A stretch of 39,004 nucleotides of DNA. Source: a virus. Its lineage: Duplodnaviria; Caudoviricetes. Under the pieces are notes generated by a model. It searched no databases, was not told where the DNA came from, and saw nothing but the letters and a program-made list of their open reading frames with translations. The position numbers were made by a program, and so were the translations under genes. Below are positions 6,171 to 38,772 of this stretch, piece by piece (position 1 is the first letter of the stretch; every line of letters starts with the position of its first letter). The stretch spans positions 1 to 39,004 of IMG/VR virus record IMGVR_UViG_3300048576_000452; one strand, 5' to 3'.

Positions 6171-8603
6171 TCAACCTCCCGCCCTTGTTATTTTTGTGGC
6201 TTTAGCAGACTGCGCCGCGTCGATATCGTCTACAGTCGCCTTTGCGAATTCTTTACCATTGATATACAACGGAATAACCGCGCTGCGCACTGCCCGCGCC
6301 GCGCCAGATCCGCTTGATACTTTATAGCTGCTGCTTTTGATTGACGGGCTTTCAGATATAATCGCCGGGCTTATCGTTGCCGCATATGACGGCATAGGAA
6401 GCGACATACTTCCGTCAAACGCCCCGTACACGCTGCCCGCCATTGTCTTTGATGCGTTCATTGCAGCTTTTGTGTTTTCGCTAATACCTAGCGCCACCGC
6501 AAGCGGTATGTTTTTGCCAATTTCATCACGGAATTTTCCTGTAGGCGATTTTTGGCCAAGCCAATCCTTTGCGCCCTGAAATGCTGCTTTTGCGGCTTCT
6601 ATAGCTTCTTTTTTGATCTTCCAAGTGTTTTGATCTATACCGTTAGCGAGTGCCGTTGCGAGGTCTGCGCCCGCTTCTTTCCATTGCTTATCCTGCGCGG
6701 ATATTGCATCCTCAACCGCTTTAAGCTTCGTTACGACCTCTTTTTTCATGGGCTCGAGTTCTTTTACAGCCTCTTCCTTTGCGAGGCGGTTTTTATCACG
6801 ATACAGCCCAACAGTTTTGGTAAGCTCTTTGTCTGTCATGGTATTCATGGCCTGAATTTGCGGAAGGGCTTTTACGCCAAGCTGCCGCAGTTCTGCCACC
6901 ATGCCATCATCAACGCCGCGTTTTGAAAGCTTTCCGATCTCTGTACTCCACGTTTGAAAGCCCTCTACCTGATCTTCAAGGTTTCCGATGATCTCATCTT
7001 TAATCTTTTTCAGGCTTTTTTTAGATGTGTCCAATTTGATTTCAAACTTATCAAAGATGCCGCCCATCTGTCCGAGATATTTTTTAGTCGTATCTTCAAT
7101 GGCTTTTTTTAAATCGTCTGATGCCTTGTTATATTCATCAAGCGCGATTTGCGTAGCGTCAGCAAGCTCTTCTTGTTTTGTCATTACCTCTTGCGTTTTA
7201 AGCGCCGCCAGATCATAACCATCTGCAAGGTTGTTTAGTGCCAATAAATCAGCTTCTGCAACGGGTATGCCCTGTTCTGTATAGAATGTTGTAAGTTCCG
7301 CGAGCTTTGCTTTGTAGACATCAACGCTACTGCCAGTAACATATAACGCTTCCTGCGCAAGGTTTTGCCTATCCACAAGTTTTTGCGCTTCATCTGCCGA
7401 TGCACCATTGGCTATAGCTGTGTTATATATTGCTGTTGTGTAGTTATTTGTTGGATCAATAGATTTTAATGTATCGCGCCATATATTGTCGAAGAACTGC
7501 GACACCGGAGCCATAGAAGCGGCGAATCGCCTGCCTGTCGCATCTGCTACGGACTGCGTTTTATCGAATTCGTTCTGGAGCCGCGAGAGAACAGCCACGC
7601 TGCCGCGATCAACGATAACGCCCATGTCCTGCGCTTCTTTGGCGTATTTTTTGAGAGCGCCGCCTCCGGCTGTAATTAACGGGTTTAAATCTGCCGCAGA
7701 TTTTCCAAATAGTTTTTGGGCAAGCACGTCGCGTTCTGTGGCGTTCGTCATAGTGCCGAGCGCGTCAATAGCCTCAGCAAATACATCGTTCCTGTCGCGC
7801 AGCTTGCCGTTTACTTCAATATCAATGCCGAGCTGGTCTTTAAATACTTTTTGAAGGTCTTTATTTCCGTCTGCCGCTATACCCATAGATTTTGTGAACT
7901 TTGCCATGGAGCTGGTCATAGTGTTCATATCAACGTCAACAAAATATGATGCGTATTGCATGCCTTGGAGTGCTTTTGTGCTTATATCTGTTTTGCGGGC
8001 CAGTGTGGTTAAATCGTCAGCCCATTGCGCAGAATCCGATATAAGTTTTGCAAGCGCCTGAAAAGCATCTTTTGCCAACGCCACCGCGCCGGTGATAGAT
8101 GCAAACTGCAATAAAGACGATGATGCAAAATTTTTTATTTGCGATTTCATGCTGCTGGTGCTGCTTGCTGCCGCCTTTATTTTTCCACCCATAGCGGTAG
8201 CTTCGGCGCCGGTTTTGCCTTCGGCTACTGCTGTTTCATATAACTCTTTCTGCGTGGTATTTAATTCTTTTTGGTATCTGTCAAGCTGCCCGGATTGCGT
8301 GTTATACTGCTTTTGCAACGTGGTATATGCGTCGCTTTCTTTATATCCGGCATCGGCAACGGCTTTCATCTCAAGCTGAAGTTCATTCAGTATTCTTTTT
8401 TGTATGCCGATCTTATCATTGAGAGCGCCGACTTTTAAAGACAACCCCGCGCTGGTGCTTTGCCAGTTTTCCATAGCGTTTGCGCCGGTGCGAAATTTGT
8501 TTTCAACTTCAGTCTGCTGCTTTTTAAGATCATTGATAGAAGTTGTATATTGCGAAAGGTCAACGCCCACCTTTATTAATAAGCTTCTTAATGTATTGCT
8601 CAT
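6171..8603 (-). CDS. Tail tape measure protein
   Basis: 810 aa, helical and Ala/Lys-rich; C-terminal LYINGKEFAKAT; position. Confidence 0.9.
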   Translation of the reverse strand: MSNTLRSLLIKVGVDLSQYTTSINDLKKQQTEVENKFRTGANAMENWQSTSAGLSLKVGALNDKIGIQKRILNELQLEMKAVADAGYKESDAYTTLQKQYNTQSGQLDRYQKELNTTQKELYETAVAEGKTGAEATAMGGKIKAAASSTSSMKSQIKNFASSSLLQFASITGAVALAKDAFQALAKLISDSAQWADDLTTLARKTDISTKALQGMQYASYFVDVDMNTMTSSMAKFTKSMGIAADGNKDLQKVFKDQLGIDIEVNGKLRDRNDVFAEAIDALGTMTNATERDVLAQKLFGKSAADLNPLITAGGGALKKYAKEAQDMGVIVDRGSVAVLSRLQNEFDKTQSVADATGRRFAASMAPVSQFFDNIWRDTLKSIDPTNNYTTAIYNTAIANGASADEAQKLVDRQNLAQEALYVTGSSVDVYKAKLAELTTFYTEQGIPVAEADLLALNNLADGYDLAALKTQEVMTKQEELADATQIALDEYNKASDDLKKAIEDTTKKYLGQMGGIFDKFEIKLDTSKKSLKKIKDEIIGNLEDQVEGFQTWSTEIGKLSKRGVDDGMVAELRQLGVKALPQIQAMNTMTDKELTKTVGLYRDKNRLAKEEAVKELEPMKKEVVTKLKAVEDAISAQDKQWKEAGADLATALANGIDQNTWKIKKEAIEAAKAAFQGAKDWLGQKSPTGKFRDEIGKNIPLAVALGISENTKAAMNASKTMAGSVYGAFDGSMSLPMPSYAATISPAIISESPSIKSSSYKVSSGSGAARAVRSAVIPLYINGKEFAKATVDDIDAAQSAKATKITRAGG

Positions 8604-27878: not shown

Positions 27879-29377
27879 GCTACTTTTCTTCCTTTCTTTC
27901 TCAACCGTTTGGATTTAAATACCGTAATAAATGCATTGACTTCCGGCGTGGCCGAGCAGTTGTTTTTTCCGCGGATTTGTATGATTTCACCGCTTCGTAT
28001 CTCAATTGTGAAGTAGGGCTCTTCCGGGGCTTCTATCTGCCGGATAAAAAGGATATCCGTTATACCCTTTGCGTAACGCTCTGCGTATGTTCCCACGCAA
28101 TGATGCAGGGCTTTCCCCTCATCGATGAGCTCCAGCGAATCCTTGGCCGCGCGGATCAGCAGCCCTTCATACTCAAAGTAAAACTTTTCGCGTTCCTTTT
28201 CCTTTTCCTTGATAAGCTCGTTAAGCTTTTCATCCTCCTTGATCTTTATCTGCCGGATCGTGTTTTGGTGCATGGTATAGAGATCCCGGGGGAAAACATT
28301 ATTTTTATCCGTGAGATCTATCGCAAGCTTTTGACAGTCAGAAATATAATCACACCATGTGGTAAGAACACTGGAGTCGGTGTTATAATGTTTTTTATTC
28401 TTTAGCCTCTGATCACGGAAATATTTCATCAACGTCCGAAACGAACCGTATTCTTTGCGTTTGGTCATTTCACTAAAATATGTGGCACCATAGGCGTTGG
28501 CGAAATACCGGGCTTCTATCGGTGTAAAATTAGATCCGTCTTGCTTGGAAAGCTGAAGGATGCGCAGGAACTGATAAGATACACTGATCTTGCGTTTATG
28601 TATTTCGTTAAATTCGGCTTTGGATATTCGTAGTACTTTAAATAGTGTTTTGCCATTCCAATTGATAGAGCTATATGTTGGTTCTCTTTGGAGCTTGCCA
28701 ATAACCAGCTTCTTGAAGCCTAATTTCGTCAAGTATTCGATACACGGGTATTTTGAATACAGCCCAAGGAAAGCCGTCATATCCTGGTAATCATACTGCT
28801 CCCAAGTGCTGTATTGAAATGGCGTCCCTTTTACGCTTTGTTCCAGGCTGTCACGCGAATATTGTGTGTTTGAATTAAATATCGACAATCCATAGATGGT
28901 TGCTGTCGGCTGAAAAGAGGATGTACCTTCGCGCCAATTATATTCTTTTTTGTACATAACGCTTTCACCCATCGCAAAAACATAATAGGCGGTTATCTCA
29001 AAATGAGTATTAACGTTGCGGAATGATCTTCGATAATCTCGATAAACTTCAAAATGCCGGGCAACCACAATTTGAGGATCGAGTAATGATTTTTCATAAT
29101 ATGTAAAAGTCCCGCTGTCATATAAGTGGGAATAGCCACGGCCTGAGGCTTTCACCAGACAATATGATCCGCAATGCAGGCAGCGCGTATATTTATTGTG
29201 ATAAAGCTGTGATGCAAACTCCTGCCGGCAGTGTGTGCAATACGCAAACTGCTTCTTTCCGATCCTGTGGGTAAAGATATACCGGCTATGCAAAAGCACA
29301 TCATCATCGGCAAAGCGCAGGATCTCATCCGAAAGCTTTTCATTAAAATGAGAGTAAAAATCATCTGTTAACGGCAT
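27875..29377 (-). CDS. PcfJ-like protein
   Basis: ELIDEGKALHHCVGTYAERY..FTIEI..QIRGKNN. Confidence 0.85.
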   Translation of the reverse strand: MPLTDDFYSHFNEKLSDEILRFADDDVLLHSRYIFTHRIGKKQFAYCTHCRQEFASQLYHNKYTRCLHCGSYCLVKASGRGYSHLYDSGTFTYYEKSLLDPQIVVARHFEVYRDYRRSFRNVNTHFEITAYYVFAMGESVMYKKEYNWREGTSSFQPTATIYGLSIFNSNTQYSRDSLEQSVKGTPFQYSTWEQYDYQDMTAFLGLYSKYPCIEYLTKLGFKKLVIGKLQREPTYSSINWNGKTLFKVLRISKAEFNEIHKRKISVSYQFLRILQLSKQDGSNFTPIEARYFANAYGATYFSEMTKRKEYGSFRTLMKYFRDQRLKNKKHYNTDSSVLTTWCDYISDCQKLAIDLTDKNNVFPRDLYTMHQNTIRQIKIKEDEKLNELIKEKEKEREKFYFEYEGLLIRAAKDSLELIDEGKALHHCVGTYAERYAKGITDILFIRQIEAPEEPYFTIEIRSGEIIQIRGKNNCSATPEVNAFITVFKSKRLRKKGRKVA

Positions 29378-29388
29378 AGCGGTTCACC

Positions 29389-29766
29389 TCAAAGATAATC
29401 GTCAAGCTTGACATCAAAGTCAATGCTGCTGGTGTTGGCCATGGCGGCCGGCGTCTGGTATGCTGTCACACCGGGCACGCTTTGTATGGCTGCCGGGGCT
29501 TCTCCAATACCGAAGTATTTCAGCACAATGGCAAACCCTTCTGCATCGGAAAGCACTGCACAGTTGCCGGACTTCTTCTTTGAGGCTTCAGTGCGCATTG
29601 CATCCATGCTTCTGGAGATCGTTTTTCCTGCAGTTAGCACTATTTCTGCATACTGCGGATTTGCCATAAGGAAGGAAGTTAAAAAATCGCCTACAGCTTG
29701 GACATATGAATTGTTTGTGTTTTGGGACATTTCATCACTGATTTTTTCTAAAGCTTTATCGAGCAT
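29389..29766 (-). CDS. PcfK-like protein
   Basis: GKTISRSMDAMRTEASKKKSGNCAVLSDAEGFAIVLKYF; directly upstream of PcfJ. Confidence 0.7.
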   Translation of the reverse strand: MLDKALEKISDEMSQNTNNSYVQAVGDFLTSFLMANPQYAEIVLTAGKTISRSMDAMRTEASKKKSGNCAVLSDAEGFAIVLKYFGIGEAPAAIQSVPGVTAYQTPAAMANTSSIDFDVKLDDYL

Positions 29767-30052
29767 TGGTTTCTCCTCCAGTTCTTTCTCGTAATCCTGC
29801 TTTATACAGCGCTACATACACAATGTCTGTGCGGATATTCATTGCTTCTGCAATTTGAGTCGGGGTTTGTTCGTTTTTATACCGTTTGCATATTTCTATA
29901 ACCCTTTGCTTTAGCTTCTCTCTCGGCATAAAATGGCGTTCAGGTGCAATGCCTATAGCGCGAAGGCTTCGGTCGATGCTCTTTTCAGATACGATGGATA
30001 AGCACAAAGCGGCATAATTCGGGTTTAAAATATCTGATGATGCTTGCAACAT
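29756..30052 (-). CDS. Hypothetical protein with C-terminal HTH
   Basis: AGGAGG RBS; TPTQIAEAMNIRTDIVYVAL. Confidence 0.7.
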   Translation of the reverse strand: MLQASSDILNPNYAALCLSIVSEKSIDRSLRAIGIAPERHFMPREKLKQRVIEICKRYKNEQTPTQIAEAMNIRTDIVYVALYKAGLRERTGGETNAR

Positions 30053-30070
30053 GGTTTTTTCCTCCTCTTT

Positions 30071-30475
30071 TTAAATAAAAATCTTGGCAACCAGGTTTAG
30101 CTTTAGTTCCTTCCAGTCCTCGGGGCTGATGTTATACTTGATACGTAATTCGTCCAGCTTCGCTTGACATCTTAACAACCGTAGTGTCCGGGGCTCAATC
30201 CTTCTTTTATCCGACGCAATTGGCGGAATTAAGGGTTCTGCTGCGGGCGCTTTTGTATCCACGCGGGGCGCTGGTTCCTGTTGATCAATTTTCTCGCCGG
30301 TTCTTTTCGGGCACCACTTGGGCGAAAGGAACGGACCAAACCCCTCAATACGCCTATTTGTAGCTGTGCAGTCATGATTATGTTGTAGACCATTACCTTT
30401 TTTTCCGTACGGTATAGCTTTGTGGTATTCGCACTCTTTGCATTGGGGTACTCTATTTTTCGTCATATGCATCAT
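30071..30475 (-). CDS. Hypothetical protein (N-terminal Cys cluster)
   Basis: CKECEYH..C..SPKWCPK; operon context. Confidence 0.65.
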   Translation of the reverse strand: MMHMTKNRVPQCKECEYHKAIPYGKKGNGLQHNHDCTATNRRIEGFGPFLSPKWCPKRTGEKIDQQEPAPRVDTKAPAAEPLIPPIASDKRRIEPRTLRLLRCQAKLDELRIKYNISPEDWKELKLNLVAKIFI

Positions 30476-30518
30476 CCTTTTTTCGGATTAAGAGAGGGCT
30501 TTAATCGCCCTCGTTGTT

Positions 30519-30599
30519 TTAGTTATTTTCGTCTTCACAGTCGCAGTGTTCTTCGCAGGAGTCTAAATTCGCTCCGCATTGGGGACAGGGGTACGGCAT
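30519..30599 (-). CDS. 26-aa zinc-finger-like peptide MPYPCPQCGANLDSCEEHCDCEDENN
   Basis: AGAAGGGA RBS; CPxCGANLD..CDC motif of small clostridial phage ORFs. Confidence 0.5.
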   Translation of the reverse strand: MPYPCPQCGANLDSCEEHCDCEDENN

Positions 30600-30712
30600 T
30601 TCTTTCCCTTCTTTCTGGCAAAGGCGTCCACATCGCGCCGGATGCGCCCGCGGCTGCGGTTAAAGTCTTTTATCGTGTAGAACTGCAATCTTGGCTTTTG
30701 TACAAACGGCAT
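30563..30712 (-). CDS. 49-aa basic hypothetical protein (MPFVQKPRLQFY...)
   Basis: AGGAGG RBS upstream of ATG at 30712. Confidence 0.5.
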   Translation of the reverse strand: MPFVQKPRLQFYTIKDFNRSRGRIRRDVDAFARKKGKKCRTPVPNAERI

Positions 30713-30738
30713 GATGGGTTTCCTCCTATTATTCATTC

Positions 30739-30825
30739 ACAGAGAGGAGCGGGATTTGCCCCCGCCTTCGGCCATTATCGGTTTGTCCCCCTATACCCTT
30801 TTGGCGATTGAGCCGGCCTCTCTGT
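30739..30825 (-). ncRNA. Putative tRNA-like three-way-junction RNA 2
   Basis: Closing stem ACAGAGAGG/CCTCTCTGT, internal hairpin, AA linker, T-arm-like GGCGGG-GGCAAAT-CCCGCT. Confidence 0.55.
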
Positions 30826-30881
30826 ATTGCCAAGGATATACCGCCTCGGCTTTCGGTTCGCGAAATTCCTCTTTTAGAGGA

Positions 30882-30964
30882 TGGTGGAGAATGCCGGATG
30901 TTTACCCGGCTTGCAATTACGCCGCCGTACCACTCCTGATGATAGCCAACGCAACTGCTTCCCC
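30882..30964 (-). ncRNA. Putative tRNA-like three-way-junction RNA 1 ending in ACCA
   Basis: GGGGAA/TTCTCC acceptor with G3.U, A discriminator and CCA; long hairpin GCAGTTGCG/CGTAATTGC; AA linker; GCCGG-GTAAACAT-CCGGC arm. Confidence 0.6.
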
Positions 30965-30996
30965 ATAGTGCCGGGCGCTGATCCCCGGCGGCATAA

Positions 30997-31101
30997 TCAT
31001 CGTTTTTTCTTTTGCTCAAGCTTTTCAGTAATGATAATGGCGATCGCAACGCCGACAAACACGATTATCAATGTAAGCGCATCCGGTATGTAACAACTCA
31101 T
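30997..31101 (-). CDS. 34-aa single-TM peptide MSCYIPDALTLIIVFVGVAIAIIITEKLEQKKKR
   Basis: AGAGGT RBS; hydrophobic helix followed by a basic tail. Confidence 0.55.
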   Translation of the reverse strand: MSCYIPDALTLIIVFVGVAIAIIITEKLEQKKKR

Positions 31102-31105
31102 ACGC

Positions 31106-31654
31106 TTACCTCTTTACCAGCTGGCCGGATGTATCGATGTACATATTCCCCGGTACCGCTTTGGCCTTACCCACGGTGTAAAACGTGTGATCACCTATCC
31201 GGCAGTATCGCGGTATGTTCTTATTCCGGCCCCAATGCTTACGGTTCGCGCGCTGGAACATAGTGCAGTTTTTCGGCAGTATGCGGTGATCAATGGCGTA
31301 CATTACCGCCTCGCGGCACTTTTTTACCGATGCAATCACGCCTTTTTTCTTTGATGTCAGTATCCATCGGCCCGCCTTTGCGTATTGGCCGTGGCGTGTA
31401 ATATGCCTCATAGAATACTTGCCCTTGTTGTTTTCGTAACGGTAGATCGCAGTAAGCGCTACGGCTGCCCTGCCATAGAAAGGCTGGTTCCGTGCTTCGG
31501 CATAAACCACACGGGTAAGTTCGTTGATCTCCGCTTCGGTGTAGGTGTATTTAATTTTGCCGTCCGGTGTTTTGGTTGCTTTGGCCTGTGCTATAGGAAT
31601 GAATAGTGTGATGATAAGCAGAACTACGATGCAGAATAATATGATTTTCTTCAT
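31106..31654 (-). CDS. Cell wall hydrolase (SleB/CwlJ-like Hydrolase_2) with signal peptide
   Basis: LTRVVYAEARNQ..QY..RIGDHTFY; AGGAGAGG RBS before MKKIILF. Confidence 0.85.
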   Translation of the reverse strand: MKKIILFCIVVLLIITLFIPIAQAKATKTPDGKIKYTYTEAEINELTRVVYAEARNQPFYGRAAVALTAIYRYENNKGKYSMRHITRHGQYAKAGRWILTSKKKGVIASVKKCREAVMYAIDHRILPKNCTMFQRANRKHWGRNKNIPRYCRIGDHTFYTVGKAKAVPGNMYIDTSGQLVKR

Positions 31655-31727
31655 AAACCTCTCCTTATGCAGCTGCCTTGTGGCCTGCTGCGCTCTTTTG
31701 TATTTCATAGGCTTTTGCCTAAAACTT

Positions 31728-31985
31728 TTATACGGTCCTTGATTCCCCTGTCACCCAATACCAGAGCGCAAGCTTCGGTATCTTGCAGTAGCCGCGCCCA
31801 TATTTTCCGCCTTCCGTGCCGATTGCAAAAGGCACATTCCCGCTGTATATCATGTTGCGGAATTTCACCTTGTCCAGCCCGAAAATATCAGCGACCTTAT
31901 CTGCGGGAATGTCCGGTTTATCATCGGCTTCAAGCGCCAAAAGCAACTCCGTATTCAGTTTTTCTATAATTGCTGGCCGTGTCAT
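31728..31985 (-). CDS. Excisionase-like winged-HTH protein
   Basis: IPADKVADIFGLD..VPFAIG..CKIPKLALWYW. Confidence 0.65.
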   Translation of the reverse strand: MTRPAIIEKLNTELLLALEADDKPDIPADKVADIFGLDKVKFRNMIYSGNVPFAIGTEGGKYGRGYCKIPKLALWYWVTGESRTV

Positions 31986-32440
31986 TTCTTTTTCTCCGTG
32001 TCGTATCGCGCTGCCGCAGCCAAAAGTTCAATCAGGTTGATCAATAAGTTTATAACGTCGAGCTCATATGCGCCCCACTCCGGCAGCTCTTCAGCTTGTA
32101 ATTGATTGTCGGAGGCCATATCAAGAATGTCCTCAATGTGGCGCTGAACGGCTGAAAGCTTCTTCGGCAACCGGCATGCTGCGCCGCGAAGATCCACGTG
32201 GTCAAAATTTATCTTCGGAAAAAGCTCTTTCCATGCCGGACATTCCTGTAAGCATTTATATAAAAGCTGTTTATCGTTATAGGCCATTGATATGGACGGA
32301 ATTACATCGGCCGGAACCTTGCGTTCGCCGCACTCATAGGCTTGCAGCGTCCGCAAATCGAACGGAAGCGTTTGTGCGGCATTTTCCTGAGATAATCCTG
32401 CTTTTTTACGGCTTTCGCGTATTAATTCGCTTATATCCAT
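31982..32440 (-). CDS. XRE-family HTH regulator with CII-like C-terminus
   Basis: RESRKKAGLSQENAA..TLQAYECGER; AGGAGG RBS before ATG at 32440. Confidence 0.8.
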   Translation of the reverse strand: MDISELIRESRKKAGLSQENAAQTLPFDLRTLQAYECGERKVPADVIPSISMAYNDKQLLYKCLQECPAWKELFPKINFDHVDLRGAACRLPKKLSAVQRHIEDILDMASDNQLQAEELPEWGAYELDVINLLINLIELLAAAARYDTEKKK

Positions 32441-32498
32441 CGTGGTGTTGCCTCCTAAAAATTGGTAAGATAAAAGTGTAAAAAAAATTAGGCGGTGA

Positions 32499-32696
32499 TC
32501 AGTTTTGTTTAAAAGTATCAATCGGAACCCCATAAACCTCAGCAAGCTTAAAGGCCATATTCCGTCCGGGAAGCCTGAGGCCAGCCTCAATCTTGTGGAT
32601 ATAGTCAACGCTCACGCCTGCGCTTTCTGCTACTTTAGCTCTGGTTAGAGATTTCGCCGCCCTTGCGGCCATTAAGTCCTGTCTTTTTTCTGGCAT
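32499..32696 (-). CDS. Cro-like XRE HTH protein
   Basis: 65 aa, LTRAKVAESAGVSVDYIHKIEAGLRLP; divergent from cI. Confidence 0.85.
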   Translation of the reverse strand: MPEKRQDLMAARAAKSLTRAKVAESAGVSVDYIHKIEAGLRLPGRNMAFKLAEVYGVPIDTFKQN

Positions 32697-32732
32697 ATTC
32701 TCTCTCCCTGAAATGATTAATCTCGAAACGTA

Positions 32733-32780
32733 TTGAATAACTTACAAATTGTTGCTATAATTACTAAGACTGCATGTCTA
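32733..32780 (+). promoter_or_regulatory. sigmaA promoter (TTGAAT-17-TATAAT, extended -10 TG) with operator-like AAGAC-N5-GTCTA at 32766-32780
   Basis: Read directly; the operator matches the cI/cro operators. Confidence 0.7.
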
Positions 32781-32799
32781 AGTTTGTTGGGGGTGTTGT

Positions 32800-33057
32800 A
32801 TGGGTAAAATTATTGAGCTTCAACGCCCGAGTATTGGGGAAATATTAACTTTTGTTACGGCGGGCGGTATGTTTAGCGGCAAGATTGCAGGTTATTCCGG
32901 CTCTGATGATAATATTGCCGTTGACATCAATGAAGTTTATTTTCGCCCAGCAGGAAACTTTTCAAGGCTGTTAGCAATGGATGAAGCGCACATTTATTTA
33001 AAAAACGTCGTTGCCTTAATCCCTTGCATTGAGAGGTTTCAAGATCAATGTCCTTAA
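32800..33057 (+). CDS. Hypothetical 85-aa protein, possibly Sm/Hfq-like fold
   Basis: Own promoter and GGGGG RBS; beta-rich LTFVTAGGMFSGKI..HIYLKNVVAL. Confidence 0.6.
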   Translation: MGKIIELQRPSIGEILTFVTAGGMFSGKIAGYSGSDDNIAVDINEVYFRPAGNFSRLLAMDEAHIYLKNVVALIPCIERFQDQCP

Positions 33058-33140
33058 GTATTGCTTTATCAACACTGCCGCGAATTATGATTGCCTCGTC
33101 GTTCTGCATTGGGCTTGTCCTCCTTGTGGGGTTCAACGAT

Positions 33141-33218
33141 AAGACGTTATGTCTTGTCATGGCTTTATTATATTAGACGTTATGTCTTATGTCAATATAT
33201 ATTTTGGCGTTTTGTCTT
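33141..33218. promoter_or_regulatory. Three repressor operators, consensus AAGAC-N5-GTCTT (33141-33155, 33174-33188, degenerate 33204-33218)
   Basis: AAGACGTTATGTCTT, TAGACGTTATGTCTT, TTGGCGTTTTGTCTT. Confidence 0.75.
33167..33195 (-). promoter_or_regulatory. Early lytic promoter, perfect consensus TTGACA-17-TATAAT
   Basis: TTGACA at 33195-33190, TATAAT at 33172-33167; an operator fills the spacer. Confidence 0.85.
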
Positions 33219-33236
33219 ATTTTTTATGGTGTAACA

Positions 33237-33563
33237 ATGGAAAGATTAAAGCAGTTAAGAATTGAAAAAGGAATAACGCAGCAGCAAATAGCCAATGATC
33301 TGGGTATTCATTATTCAACATACGGAAAATACGAATTAGGGCAGCGGGATACAGATACAGAAACATTGAATAAGCTTGCCGACTACTTTGATGTATCTGT
33401 CGATTATCTCCTTGGTCGCACTAATCAAAAACGCGAAAACGAGCGCGCAGCCCTAAGTATCGCCGGGGGAAAAAGCTATGCCGATCTACCCCCCGAAGCT
33501 ATTCAGGACCTGGAAGAATACGCGGAGTTTCTGCGTTCTAAATACGGGAAGAAAAAAGAATAG
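33237..33563 (+). CDS. CI/ImmR-like XRE repressor
   Basis: RLKQLRIEKGITQQQIA..KYELGQR..LADYFDVSVDYLLGR; no S24 peptidase domain, ImmA encoded nearby. Confidence 0.9.
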   Translation: MERLKQLRIEKGITQQQIANDLGIHYSTYGKYELGQRDTDTETLNKLADYFDVSVDYLLGRTNQKRENERAALSIAGGKSYADLPPEAIQDLEEYAEFLRSKYGKKKE

Positions 33564-33578
33564 TATGAGGTTTTACAA

Positions 33579-34025
33579 ATGCTTGATCAATTAGAGATCG
33601 ATCGATTGTTAGCTTTATTAAAAGACTTACATGAAAAAAGCATATTATTTCCAAGGCAAGGCAGAGACTTGAGGCTGAATGTTACGGCTCAAAAATCTAA
33701 AGATCAATTTAATATAATAATCAATTATAAATCCAAAATAGCAAAAAAATGCACATACTTGGAAAAGTATTCAAATGACATATTATTGAAATTACACTTT
33801 ATGGGTGCTCCCCATGAGAATCCAGATAATACTGTTATCCATTGCCCTCATATACATATTGCAAAAGAAAACTTTAATGACAGCTGGGCTTTTCCAATAG
33901 ATACTGTTGGAATAAAAAATTCAGACGATTTAATAGAACAACTGTTTGATTTCTTGCAATTTTGTAATATAATTAATCTTGAAGATATAGATATTCAGCA
34001 TAATTTTATAAATGAGGTAGATTAA
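33579..34025 (+). CDS. DUF6978-like protein
   Basis: PHENPD..CPHIHI..WAFPI motif; AT-rich; follows cI. Confidence 0.7.
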   Translation: MLDQLEIDRLLALLKDLHEKSILFPRQGRDLRLNVTAQKSKDQFNIIINYKSKIAKKCTYLEKYSNDILLKLHFMGAPHENPDNTVIHCPHIHIAKENFNDSWAFPIDTVGIKNSDDLIEQLFDFLQFCNIINLEDIDIQHNFINEVD

Positions 34026-34796
34026 ATGGCGCAGAGACCGCCAGATGGTAATGTTCTGATTGACCATTACCTTGAATGGATAAAAACTAAATTTAGCGCA
34101 AAAACCATCGGCGAGTATTGTGAAATTACAACGCCTCTTCTTGATTCTCACAATGATTATTTTCAAATATATGTTAAATCTACTGAGCATGGTCTTTTGT
34201 TAACTGATGACGGATATGTTATTAATGATCTTTCATACATAATTGACTTGAATAATCCAAAAAGAAAAGAAATATTAAATACCGTCATAAACAGATATGG
34301 AATAAAACGTGATGATGATGAGTTATATGTTGAAGCAACATTAAATAATTTTGCGCAAAAAAAACATAACCTTATTCAAGCTATGATTGCAGTTAATGAT
34401 ATAGCTTATACTTCAACATCAACCGCTATAAGTATTTTTACTGACGAAGTCGCAAGTTTTTTGGATGTTATTAACATACCATATACTTCGTCGGTATTAT
34501 TCAACGGTAAAAGTGGTCTTGCGCACAGTTATGATTTTATTATTCCTCGTACATCAAAAAGTCCCAGCAAGGCAATTAAGGCAATACAAAAGCTTGATAA
34601 GAACAGAACTCAATTGTTTATTTTTGCATGCAATGATACGAAGCAAGCGCGTAACGATAATTTAATTATATATCCAATAGTCAATGATACCGATAAGCCT
34701 ATTTCACAAGATATATATAAAGCTTTTAATGAATATGACATTGATCTTTTGGCGTGGAGCAATAAAGAAAATATAAAACATAAATTAGCTATTTAA
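34026..34796 (+). CDS. DUF1828 + DUF1829-like protein (C-terminal restriction-endonuclease-like domain)
   Basis: EITTPLLDSHNDYFQIY..LTDDGY; GKSGLAHSYDFII. Confidence 0.8.
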   Translation: MAQRPPDGNVLIDHYLEWIKTKFSAKTIGEYCEITTPLLDSHNDYFQIYVKSTEHGLLLTDDGYVINDLSYIIDLNNPKRKEILNTVINRYGIKRDDDELYVEATLNNFAQKKHNLIQAMIAVNDIAYTSTSTAISIFTDEVASFLDVINIPYTSSVLFNGKSGLAHSYDFIIPRTSKSPSKAIKAIQKLDKNRTQLFIFACNDTKQARNDNLIIYPIVNDTDKPISQDIYKAFNEYDIDLLAWSNKENIKHKLAI

Positions 34797-34860
34797 TGTC
34801 CCAAATTATACCCAATACCTTTGCTATAATAGCACTACAGATATAAAAGGGGTTTAAAAT

Positions 34861-35334
34861 ATGATAAGTGAGTATGAGCGCATGGAGCAGCTTGCTTATG
34901 AGAATGACGTTTCGATTTTTTATCGCTCCATGACCGATAATGTAAAAGGTTTTTACTATTCAATTAATGATTTTGCATCAATCACCTTGAACCAATCGCT
35001 TGAAACTACTGCAGAAAAGTCATGCGTGCTCGCGGAAGAAGTCGAGCATTTTTTAACTACACCCATAAACTTACTCTCTGCAACCGCTGGCAATCAAGAG
35101 AAATATGAACACGTCGCCAGATGGGGCGCCGTCCGGCGGCTGGTTCCTTTGCGTAAACTGATAGACGCAAAATACGAAGGCGTGGGTAATATTTATGAAT
35201 TGGCCGAATATCTCAATGTAACAGAGGATTTTCTTTCTATGGCTTTGAATATGTACCGTGAGCATTATGGGCTTGAATTTTGTTATGGGCGGTATATAAT
35301 AAAACTTAATCCAATCGATGTTTATTACGCATAA
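34861..35334 (+). CDS. ImmA/IrrE-family metallopeptidase (anti-repressor)
   Basis: KGFY..ITLNQSL..LAEEVEH..ELAEYLNVTEDFL; TGcTATAAT at 34822-34830. Confidence 0.8.
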   Translation: MISEYERMEQLAYENDVSIFYRSMTDNVKGFYYSINDFASITLNQSLETTAEKSCVLAEEVEHFLTTPINLLSATAGNQEKYEHVARWGAVRRLVPLRKLIDAKYEGVGNIYELAEYLNVTEDFLSMALNMYREHYGLEFCYGRYIIKLNPIDVYYA

Positions 35335-35367
35335 TTCTACCAACTAAATTTAAAAGGAGAAAAACGA

Positions 35368-35961
35368 ATGAAAAAAGTATTATTAATTTTACTGTCGGTT
35401 CTTTTCATATTGTCTTTTGCCGGATGTTCCGGCGTATCACAGGAAGCTTTTGAACAGTTGAAGAGCGAAAATTCTCAATTACAGCAGGAGCTTGATAACC
35501 TTAAAGGCCAGTCAGATGACAGCGAAGTAGCAGAAGAGCCGGAAGAAATAGATTCTGCTGAACCCGCGGATAGCCCAGCGCCTGCAGCTTCACTATCTTC
35601 ATCCGGAACTATAGATGAGTATAAAGTAAAAATTCTCAATTGTGAAGTAATAAAAAACTATGAAAAGAAGCCAGCCGTTAGAATATATTTTGAGTTTACA
35701 AACAATAGCAGCAAGACAGATAAATTTATGATGTGTATAACGACAATTTGTTTTCAAAATGGCGTGCAGCTTGATACAAGCTCTGCAGACAAAGATGCGC
35801 CCGAAGATAATAACGCATATAAAGATATTAAGCCAGGCACGACAATAAAATGTGCGGACGTATTTTTAATACAGGACAATTCACCGATAGAAGTTTATGC
35901 AGGGGAATTTGCTGCAGACACCGACGAATGTACGGTGAAAAAATCATTTACCCTCAAATAA
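35368..35961 (+). CDS. Lipoprotein (DUF5067/DUF4352-like Ig domain), candidate superinfection exclusion
   Basis: Lipobox FAGC; FEFTNNS..FQNGVQL..DIKPGTTI. Confidence 0.75.
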   Translation: MKKVLLILLSVLFILSFAGCSGVSQEAFEQLKSENSQLQQELDNLKGQSDDSEVAEEPEEIDSAEPADSPAPAASLSSSGTIDEYKVKILNCEVIKNYEKKPAVRIYFEFTNNSSKTDKFMMCITTICFQNGVQLDTSSADKDAPEDNNAYKDIKPGTTIKCADVFLIQDNSPIEVYAGEFAADTDECTVKKSFTLK

Positions 35962-37396: not shown

Positions 37397-37446
37397 CCTG
37401 ACTGGCAGTCAGGAGATCAGGAGTTCGAATCTCCTTAGCTCCACCA
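37397..37446 (+). pseudogene. 3' half of tRNA-Ala(GGC), interpreted as the attachment-site core
   Basis: CCTGA-CTGGCAG-TCAGG anticodon arm, GGAGTTCGAATCTCC T-arm, TAGCTCCACCA end; no 5' acceptor strand or D-arm. Confidence 0.85.
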
Positions 37447-37450
37447 AACA

Positions 37451-37486
37451 AAAAAGCCCTTGAAATCTTCATTTTCAGGGGTTTTT
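37451..37486 (+). terminator. Intrinsic terminator after the tRNA 3' end (possibly bidirectional)
   Basis: AAAAAGCCCTTGAAA-TCTTCAT-TTTCAGGGGTTTTT. Confidence 0.7.
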
Positions 37487-37545
37487 GCATTCTTTAAATT
37501 GGCTTATTCGAATGTATTTTCTCAACCATGCCACTGTTTATGCCA

Positions 37546-38772
37546 CTATTTTGAATTTGGGAACAATTGAATCGACCGCAATGCTTCTTCTTTAGTTCTG
37601 TTCAGCGTCGGGCCGAACTTTTTATCCATAACATCGGCAATCTCTCTTTCTGCTTCCTTTACTCCATGAATATAGATTTTTATTGTTGTTGAAACATTGC
37701 TGTGACCTAAGGTTTTGCTTATGCTCGCAATGTCTACGTTTGACTTCAATAAGAGAGATGCAAAGGTATGCCTGAGCCCATGATATGTTATGTGATTTAA
37801 TCCATGTCTTTTTATGAACCGTCGAAACCAGCATGATAGACTATCGGGATATATCATTTTACCGTTTTCTTCGTTTATGAAAACAAAGTCGTTCATTTCC
37901 CACTGCGGCCCCATTAACAACCTTGTTTTTCTCTGTTCGGTTTTATACAGCTTTAAAGGCTCGATCAGGAATTCGGGAATATCTATTGTTCTTTCGGAAT
38001 CCTCCGTTTTCGGAGGCTTTAAATATACTCCGAATTCTTTCCCAGCATACCGCGCTGCTTCCTTCACATATAACTTTCTTTCTTGCAGGTCTATGTTTGC
38101 CCATCTTAATGCAACGACCTCCTCACGACGAAGCCCGCAAAACGAAGGCAAATATACATAAAGCCTTTTTTGCATGGGGTATTTCTCTAAAACATCAAAC
38201 ATTTTTAGAGCCATATCGGTGTTATACACACTGATCTTGGTTTTAGGAACCTTGAAAGGCGTAACTTTTTCACAGGGATTTCTGTCTATCCATTCCCATT
38301 TTACTGCCAGTTGCAAAATCGCTTTCAGGATTTTAAGCAGTGTGTTTGCATATGCCTTACTTTTTCCCTTTATTGTTACAGTCCACTTCATAAAATCATC
38401 GATGTCTTTTACACCAATATTGTTTAATTTCCGATTGCCGAAATACTCCCGTATAATCGGTGTATTTTCACGATACCAGTTTAAAGTACCCTTTTCCAGT
38501 TGTGGCTTTGCATAATCATCCTCCCATCGTGCAAAAAATGCATCGAAAGATATATTCCCGCCGCGGCCGATCTCCTTCTCAAGTTCGGTAATATATCGCC
38601 GCATTGATATTTGGGCTTTGCTGTACTGTTCTTTTTCCGTTCTGCCTTCGACATAAACGATTTTGCTTCTCTCGATCTTCCTGCGATCTGGTGTGTATCC
38701 CATCGATACACGAAGGCGAAATTTCCCATCTGCCATTTTGTTAATGCTTCCTTTTCCTTTAATTGTTTTCAT
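37546..38772 (-). CDS. int: Tyrosine integrase with N-terminal arm-binding domain
   Basis: KGSINKMADGKFRLRVSMGY; GLRREEVVAL, HGLRHTF, LGHS, IYIH. Confidence 0.93.
   Translation of the reverse strand: MKTIKGKGSINKMADGKFRLRVSMGYTPDRRKIERSKIVYVEGRTEKEQYSKAQISMRRYITELEKEIGRGGNISFDAFFARWEDDYAKPQLEKGTLNWYRENTPIIREYFGNRKLNNIGVKDIDDFMKWTVTIKGKSKAYANTLLKILKAILQLAVKWEWIDRNPCEKVTPFKVPKTKISVYNTDMALKMFDVLEKYPMQKRLYVYLPSFCGLRREEVVALRWANIDLQERKLYVKEAARYAGKEFGVYLKPPKTEDSERTIDIPEFLIEPLKLYKTEQRKTRLLMGPQWEMNDFVFINEENGKMIYPDSLSCWFRRFIKRHGLNHITYHGLRHTFASLLLKSNVDIASISKTLGHSNVSTTIKIYIHGVKEAEREIADVMDKKFGPTLNRTKEEALRSIQLFPNSK

Follow-up and report, generated by a model that had tools for sequence, protein, structure and literature searches.

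What does an RNA with the acceptor end of a tRNA, and no anticodon arm, do in the early message of a phage? The question is raised by an 83-nt element on the minus strand of the window, by which we mean the whole stretch of DNA analysed here (39,004 nt of the record IMGVR_UViG_3300048576_000452, Caudoviricetes, positions 1-39,004). The window is a temperate phage, with genes for integrase, repressor, Cro-like and XRE regulators, recombination, replication, terminase, portal, capsid, tail and holin. The phage probably infects a member of the Clostridia, as judged from the Lachnospiraceae label on the sole genome contig that carries a relative of its hydrolase gene, and from tRNA-Ala matches in Clostridia-class genomes. 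A gene-free stretch of 285 nt in the early leftward gene run holds the element, about 2.2 kb downstream of a promoter site from which the early transcript is likely driven. Within 29300-33300, no terminator-like site was found on the minus strand. The setting, from upstream to downstream, is given below; L003 is a related viral contig discussed further on.

33167..33195, minus strand: sigma-70-type promoter site, 12/12 match.
31106..31708, minus strand: hydrolase gene of the CwlJ/SleB-like cell wall type, used as upstream synteny anchor (Pfam Hydrolase_2 at E 3.7e-4, below the cut-off).
30997..31101, minus strand: hydrophobic ORF of 34 aa just upstream of the element; in L003 the equivalent place is taken by a hydrophobic ORF of 43 aa.
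30882..30964, minus strand: the whole anticodon-less tRNA-like RNA, 83 nt, defined by folding, with no ARAGORN or Rfam match.
30519..30712, minus strand: 49-aa ORF and overlapping 26-aa Cys-rich ORF downstream of the element; L003 has counterparts behind its tRNA (E 0.015 and 0.001).

The hydrolase has a hydrophobic N-terminus, and in all three phages compared here (the window, L002 and L003) its gene is placed among early regulatory genes, outside the lysis module. On the plus strand, lysogeny-side cargo is found at 33579-35961, consisting of a DUF1828/DUF1829 protein (34026-34796), an ImmA-type metalloprotease (34861-35334) and a DUF5067 protein (35368-35961). An 85-aa ORF with its own promoter-like site (32733-33057, plus strand) lies antisense in the early leftward region and overlaps a 77-aa minus-strand ORF.

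Within the element and its immediate flanks, folding delimits the following parts.

30965..30989, minus strand: leader, a hairpin with an 8-nt loop followed by ACUAU up to G1, arranged as in the related contig L002; CUAU is also found in L003.
30959..30964, minus strand: acceptor stem 5' strand, G1 G2 G3 G4 A5 A6.
30913..30958, minus strand: long hairpin, nt 7-52, in place of the D and anticodon arms.
30893..30910, minus strand: T-like arm, a 5-bp stem with a non-canonical 8-nt loop; 8/10 stem bases as in the orthologous tRNAs, with one compensatory pair.
30882..30892, minus strand: unpaired A66, acceptor 3' strand, discriminator A73 and encoded CCA.
30867..30881, minus strand: trailer hairpin directly after CCA, with a counterpart in L002.

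The first-pass annotation had read this locus as an 83-nt minus-strand fold with G1-C, G2-C, G3.U, A73 and an encoded CCA, with a GCCGG-(8 nt)-CCGGC arm at the T-arm position and one long hairpin replacing the D and anticodon arms, and folding confirms this outline. Read 5' to 3', the acceptor is followed by the long hairpin, an AA linker, the GCCGG/CCGGC stem with its 8-nt loop, the acceptor 3' strand, A73 and CCA. The acceptor consists of six pairs, not seven (G1-C72, G2-C71, G3.U70, G4-C69, A5-U68 and A6-U67, then a G7/A66 mismatch), so that 11 of the 12 bp of a tRNA-type acceptor/T branch are paired, and the branch ends in ACCA. The long hairpin comprises 19 pairs, six of which are G.U, one G/G mismatch, one bulge and a 5-nt loop. 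The T-like stem can zip to 7 bp in folding; its loop starts with G, and the 7-nt loop with U54, U55, C56 and A58 is absent. Among all stems of nt 8-54 there is neither a cloverleaf D arm nor a 5-bp stem with a 7-nt anticodon loop, and given this predicted lack of an anticodon arm, the element would likely not read codons.

The fold is both stable and strand-specific. The whole 83-mer reaches a minimum free energy of -40.1 kcal/mol (z -5.4 to -5.6, with 0/200 shuffles as stable), and for the long hairpin alone only three of 5000 shuffles were equally stable (z -4.6). The plus strand of the 83-mer gives a z of +0.5, and the reverse complement of the hairpin is worse than its shuffles at z +1.8. 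In contexts of 161-601 nt the helices persist, with probabilities of about 1.0 for the long hairpin and T stem and 0.6-0.9 for the acceptor. The tRNA-like features do count jointly rather than one by one, since a permissive descriptor that asks for a 6-bp stem, a T-like arm and NCCA matches six sites in the window, five of them apparently by chance, and two windows, out of 974 of 83 nt compared in a noisy scan, rank above the element by z. ARAGORN reports no tRNA or tmRNA at the element, and Rfam gives no match at the locus up to E 10, with tRNA (RF00005), tmRNA and C4/CI included. This check for known classes, proposed along with the original reading, thus returned no match, and the element is real and lies outside every family tested.

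What occupies this place in related phages was examined through the hydrolase gene. Besides the window copy, six homologues of the hydrolase were found; five of these were aligned with the window copy, and the alignment was used to find the viral contigs L002 and L003. A homologue of 74% identity, P0002, occurs on contigs of up to 923 kb. The window, L002 and L003 have repressor, XRE, hydrolase and integrase genes in common, and few others. Behind the hydrolase, both contigs carry a canonical tRNA-Pro(UGG), at 6228-6305 in L002 and 5763-5839 in L003, each with a full cloverleaf, a canonical T-loop and an Rfam tRNA score of 66.8 and 62.3 bits, respectively. The gene order of L003 is that of the window: hydrolase, small hydrophobic ORF, tRNA, the 'QKPKL' ORF and the Cys-rich ORF. 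In L002 other genes intervene, and it is the flanks that match those of the window, with a hairpin carrying an 8-nt loop, CACTAT and G1 on one side, and a CCTC/GAGG hairpin after CCA on the other. The slot tRNA of L003 is without either flanking hairpin, which means that these hairpins are not required at the slot.

All three slot RNAs keep G1-C72, G2-C71, A73, CCA and the CUAU leader. In the T stem, 8 of the 10 bases match in both L002 and L003, the difference being a compensatory pair, and the acceptor matches at 9/14 bases for L002 and 8/14 for L003. Over the acceptor and T stems together, the comparison with L002 shows compensatory change at two pairs, a wobble at one and a break at another. 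Position 3-70 is A3-U70 in both orthologues, and G3.U70 is private to the window copy. R1, a model built from the single window sequence and hence weak, was run over 164 kb in which the tRNA stretch of T4 and the remaining tRNAs of G002 were included; besides the element itself it recovered only the slot tRNA of L002, weakly (E 2.2). Judged from a canonical tRNA-Pro(UGG) at the same slot in two phages that share the early-gene cassette, and from the flanks shared with L002, the element and the phage tRNA-Pro gene are positional orthologues, and the tRNA gene slot is occupied here by a remodelled version. A remnant of tRNA register in nt 8-38, with G18-G19, U33 and A37 in place, is suggestive only: it is faint, its score is negative, and 1,644 of 100,000 shuffles score as well.

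The canonical occupants are themselves unusual. Their G1-C72 is found in 0/25 host tRNA-Pro genes, 24 of which have C1-G72 (the 25 being the best loci of matches in 121/200 genomes). G72 is an identity element for the bacterial-type ProRS, and the tRNA-Pro(UGG) of L002 and L003 may need another type of ProRS, or may be non-decoding too. Behind its tRNA, L002 has about 460 nt without obvious genes (6310-6770), with many hairpins and no Rfam match; a 71-nt stem-loop within it (6345-6415, z -3.7) ends in ACCA. A lone tRNA gene (anticodon UUG, A1-U72, CCA) was also seen in the early gene run of a distant prophage with a related XRE gene (L082, 5507-5581, minus strand); this was the case at one of the seven such loci examined.

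Further copies of the fold were searched for in several ways. The exact T-arm pattern had no matches in the viral contigs; a degenerate T-loop/CCA pattern had two matches, both by chance, and a T-stem/acceptor/trailer pattern had two, namely the L002 tRNA and one by chance. Searches by blastn gave only short chance matches in the phage and plasmid collections, and a best match of 27 nt at E 0.003 over 399/401 Clostridia-class genomes. The single-sequence model R1 returned one AT-rich chance match over 150/151 and 43/43 genomes, and nothing below E 0.8 over seven loci behind distant XRE genes. Several of the protein-anchored scans were empty, and the others led only to L002 and L003, together with a contig that ends 260 nt past the hydrolase and two short contigs that match only the first part of the XRE protein. 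None of these searches turned up the fold a second time, so that covariation in the long hairpin is lacking and selection on it is unproven. A literature search found no publications on this topic; most subscription journals, the old T4 papers and supplements were outside its scope, and absence from print is not established.

Could the locus simply be a dying tRNA pseudogene, its anticodon arm replaced through one inverted duplication and its sequence now drifting without function? We consider this unlikely. The fold was seen once only, the orthologues are ordinary tRNAs, the T-loop and the pair 7-66 are broken, U8 and A14 are changed, and only the faint tRNA register is left in nt 8-38. However, decay would have left CCA, the two flanking hairpins and all but one of the 12 acceptor/T pairs intact, even if the compensatory changes in the acceptor/T half could predate the remodelling. 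Moreover, the hairpin holds six G.U against zero A.C pairs, expected in 1/64 of cases under symmetric drift; this figure is biased, as the helix was found by folding, and strand-biased mutation could contribute. When the middles of six real tRNAs were subjected to simulated point decay, a process that includes mutation alone and no inverted duplication, the stability of the hairpin was reached in 72 of 36,000 trials. The G.U bias of the hairpin points to selection at the RNA level, subject to the biases named above.

What might be selected? The features kept in all three slot RNAs, from the CUAU before G1 to the CCA, are those that tRNA-processing enzymes read. RNase P prefers U-1, and further features of its substrates are present in a paired G+1, a 3' RCCA and an unpaired leader. 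Against cutting stand the non-canonical T-loop and the absent D-loop. These should weaken recognition by RNase P at the elbow, and argue for weaker processing. The 3' RCCA and the N-1 base are described as RNase P determinants on non-tRNA substrates as well (PMC12710915), and the enzyme is reported to cut mRNAs, other non-tRNA RNAs and phage regulatory RNAs (PMC4919922). With moderate confidence, we therefore propose as our best explanation that the element would be an RNase P cutting mark, from which a small non-decoding RNA is released, in kind like T4 RNA C.

The proposed course of events starts from a slot, and flanks, which are those of tRNA-Pro(UGG) genes in two related phages. The occupant of this slot is predicted to adopt a three-way fold, in which the acceptor and T stems and CCA are kept and an anticodon arm is missing. 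It would be transcribed as part of the early RNA that starts from the promoter site (33195), and RNase P would cut before G1, where U-1, G1-C72 and ACCA are kept as in the orthologues; the 3' end would then be released and trimmed to CCA. Such a cut would fall between the genes for regulation and the hydrolase on one side and those for recombination and replication on the other, and the downstream message would then start with the trailer hairpin. RNase J is a 5' exonuclease in Firmicutes, and this hairpin would shield the downstream message from 5' exonucleolysis. The freed by-product would be a stable, non-decoding RNA of 83 nt. As a last, candidate step, AlaRS may charge this by-product, since one transition from the A3-U70 of the orthologues completes an alanine identity.

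This raises the possibility that it is the released RNA itself that matters. Alanine minihelices are charged by AlaRS, and an alanyl-RNA without an anticodon would leave nothing for nucleases to cut or for the ribosome to use; it could feed non-ribosomal transferases (AlaPGS, or those of the Fem/MurM type), or titrate AlaRS and EF-Tu. The AlaRS keys G3.U70 and A73 (PMC3968760) are indeed present in a paired acceptor end, along with G1-C72, G2-C71 and G4-C69, and the element lies behind a cell wall hydrolase gene. An alanine minihelix is reported to equal the full tRNA as a donor for AlaPGS (PMC6103681), and G2-C71 is described as a FemX determinant in a source that also relates how S. aureus keeps a non-decoding tRNA-Gly for wall synthesis (PMC4052509). 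However, G3.U70 is found in neither of the two orthologues and is a single transition away from their A3-U70, the acceptor has just six pairs, and no such transferase was found among the 40 window proteins scanned. Alanylation of the 83-mer is possible on the sequence of its acceptor, and a role for the released RNA as an alanine carrier is doubtful. The complete scenario we hold to be improbable: that a proline tRNA gene became an anticodon-free alanine carrier which would be cut by RNase P, charged through its newly gained G3.U70, and placed beyond anticodon nucleases and decoding, so as to channel alanine into membrane or cell-wall transferases (or titrate AlaRS and EF-Tu) in early lytic growth, with its long hairpin docking a phage protein. 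Of the original reading as a processed tRNA-Ala-like RNA, the tRNA likeness, the probable processing by RNase P and a full alanine identity set stand, but the orthologues at the slot are tRNA-Pro. Lack of G3.U and CCA in homologues had been named as a ground for refutation. If the two canonical tRNAs are counted as homologues, this applies to G3.U70, which neither of them has, and not to CCA, which is present in each.

The alanine character of the acceptor might also be sought in the integration site of the phage.

37397..37446, plus strand: 3' part of a tRNA-Ala(GGC), likely attR; the six best-matching loci are all tRNA-Ala (five GGC, one UGC).

Integration into tRNA-Ala, as the first-pass annotation had it, probably holds in view of these six loci. 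The tRNA fragment, which lies behind the integrase gene, matches tRNA-Ala genes in 19 of 399 Clostridia-class genomes at E 1e-10. A pattern search found acceptors identical to that of the element at 13/14 positions in 4 of 201 genomes, all in tRNA-Ala(GGC), at loci that were selected by the pattern itself. The six tRNA-Ala genes found via the att fragment match the acceptor of the element at 9-10/14, which is similar to the 9/14 of L002, and an Ala or Pro ancestry of the acceptor can therefore not be separated. A link between the element and the att site was rejected, as only 4/7 acceptor 3' bases and 2/10 T-stem bases are shared with the att fragment. It is also opposed by G002, which begins behind a Thr-Tyr-Leu tRNA run and yet has tRNA-Pro in the slot. 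The tRNA-Ala(GGC) 3' part is accompanied by a terminator-like hairpin (37397-37490), beyond which a further integrase gene lies on the opposite strand (37546-38772); this gene likely stems from a neighbouring element at the same tRNA.

tmRNA's tRNA-like domain offers another precedent for an alanine acceptor, as it shares with the element G3.U70, A73 and CCA, as well as a T-like arm and a long helix at the place of the anticodon arm. That the element mimics this domain and sequesters SmpB is hardly credible, though. SmpB binding is described as requiring a single-stranded D-loop and contacts between D- and T-loop (PMC3968760), while in the element the D-loop is absent, the long helix follows the acceptor without an unpaired base, and the T-loop is non-canonical. 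It also has no pseudoknots and no tag frame, and neither ARAGORN nor Rfam finds a tmRNA. The earlier proposal of an SmpB decoy falls on these grounds, and that of a decoy for anticodon nucleases on the lack of an anticodon loop to offer.

Equally, the CI RNA of phage P4 and the C4 RNA of P1 come to mind. These are built from a stalk plus two hairpins, which the element resembles, as it does in its early-operon position and likely processing by RNase P. C4 is described as an RNase P substrate (PMC4919922). We regard an antisense RNA of this type on a tRNA-like scaffold as very improbable: Rfam gives no CI or C4 match to E 10, the loops are short and the hairpin is closed. The longest complement in the phage genome is 12 nt, equalled or exceeded in 40/200 shuffles, and nearby there is only one 7-nt complement of a loop region. 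An antisense scaffold, likewise suggested at first, accordingly has no target above chance in the phage genome.

Downstream of the trailer hairpin, the gene-free stretch is structured further.

30829..30865, minus strand: two more small hairpins, found by folding.
30738..30826, minus strand: second element, with a 10-bp closing stem, a loosely folded middle and a T-like arm with a 7-nt loop, no CCA (folding, z -2.9).

This second element lies 56 nt downstream of the 83-mer, with three small hairpins between, and its closing stem and T-like arm are well defined, the middle not. It has no sequence alignment to the 83-mer, and the model R1 does not score it. Its 3' strand contains a CUCCU complementary to the ribosome-binding site just downstream, and it may gate translation of the 49-aa ORF. 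The 83-mer and the second element may thus form one structured leader in the folding model. Carried further, the element would be one domain of a larger cis-acting leader (30989-30738, second element included), which controls read-through or translation of the replication genes, its tRNA look being ancestry only. In favour of this, the 361-nt stretch as a whole folds well (z -3.2), forming five hairpins or domains in addition; the second element resembles the first in outline, CCA excepted, and 11 nt separate its end from the following ribosome-binding site; and in L002, too, a long stretch without genes follows the tRNA, with a z of only -1.8. Yet the minus strand lacks a terminator-like site in the range given above, deletion of the element leaves the predicted access to the ribosome-binding site unchanged, L003 is without such a stretch, and that of L002 has no sequence likeness to the one in the window. 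A cis-acting leader is therefore quite improbable to us.

The element itself is not without parallels. The small stable RNA C of T4 (rnaC, species 1; NC_000866.4, 70908-71046) resembles the element in having a closing stem and T arm, long hairpins for the D and anticodon arms, and a place in a tRNA locus. It differs in its length of 139 nt, its two hairpins, its canonical T-loop, its location in the tRNA cluster of a lytic phage and its lack of an alanine acceptor. No homology to T4 rnaC or rnaD was found, and the T4 locus (L051) gets no score from R1. The passages on RNA C in PMC3014915 and PMC12685909 give its role as unknown. Closest in descent are the tRNA-Pro(UGG) of L002 and L003, which have position, leader, end nucleotides and most of the T stem in common with the element, and in L002 both flanking hairpins, but which differ in their full cloverleaf, A3-U70 and canonical T-loop. 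The t-elements, mascRNA/menRNA and the C4 and CI RNAs are described as tRNA-like modules in a longer transcript that are cut by RNase P (PMC4919922). For t-elements, mascRNA and C4/CI these cuts have been demonstrated, where for the element cutting is inferred; t-elements and mascRNA are moreover eukaryotic, and C4 and CI have antisense targets, of which the element shows none. Allo-tRNAs with G3:U70 are irregular tRNA-like genes, and as described in PMC5389517 some have alanine identity, some are translation-inactive and some come from Clostridia. They are characterized there by an 8/4 or 9/3 acceptor branch, a D arm, an anticodon arm and a long variable arm, unlike the 7/5 geometry of the element and its missing anticodon arm. 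Identity with allo-tRNAs was rejected on branch geometry and the missing anticodon and long variable arm (PMC5389517, PMC7609411).

Phage RNAs that resemble tRNAs and lack an anticodon, such as RNA C and D of T4, have long been known, and are still without a function. What the present locus adds is a visible ancestral state: the same cassette carries a canonical tRNA in two relatives, which indicates a way in which a tRNA gene can give rise to such RNAs. Alanylation of the 83-mer, should it occur, would make it a natural example of a charged RNA unable to decode. Furthermore, the canonical and the remodelled occupant, sharing the same flanks, constitute a natural pair with which to ask what a phage keeps a lone tRNA gene for, decoding or the cutting of its early message at that site.
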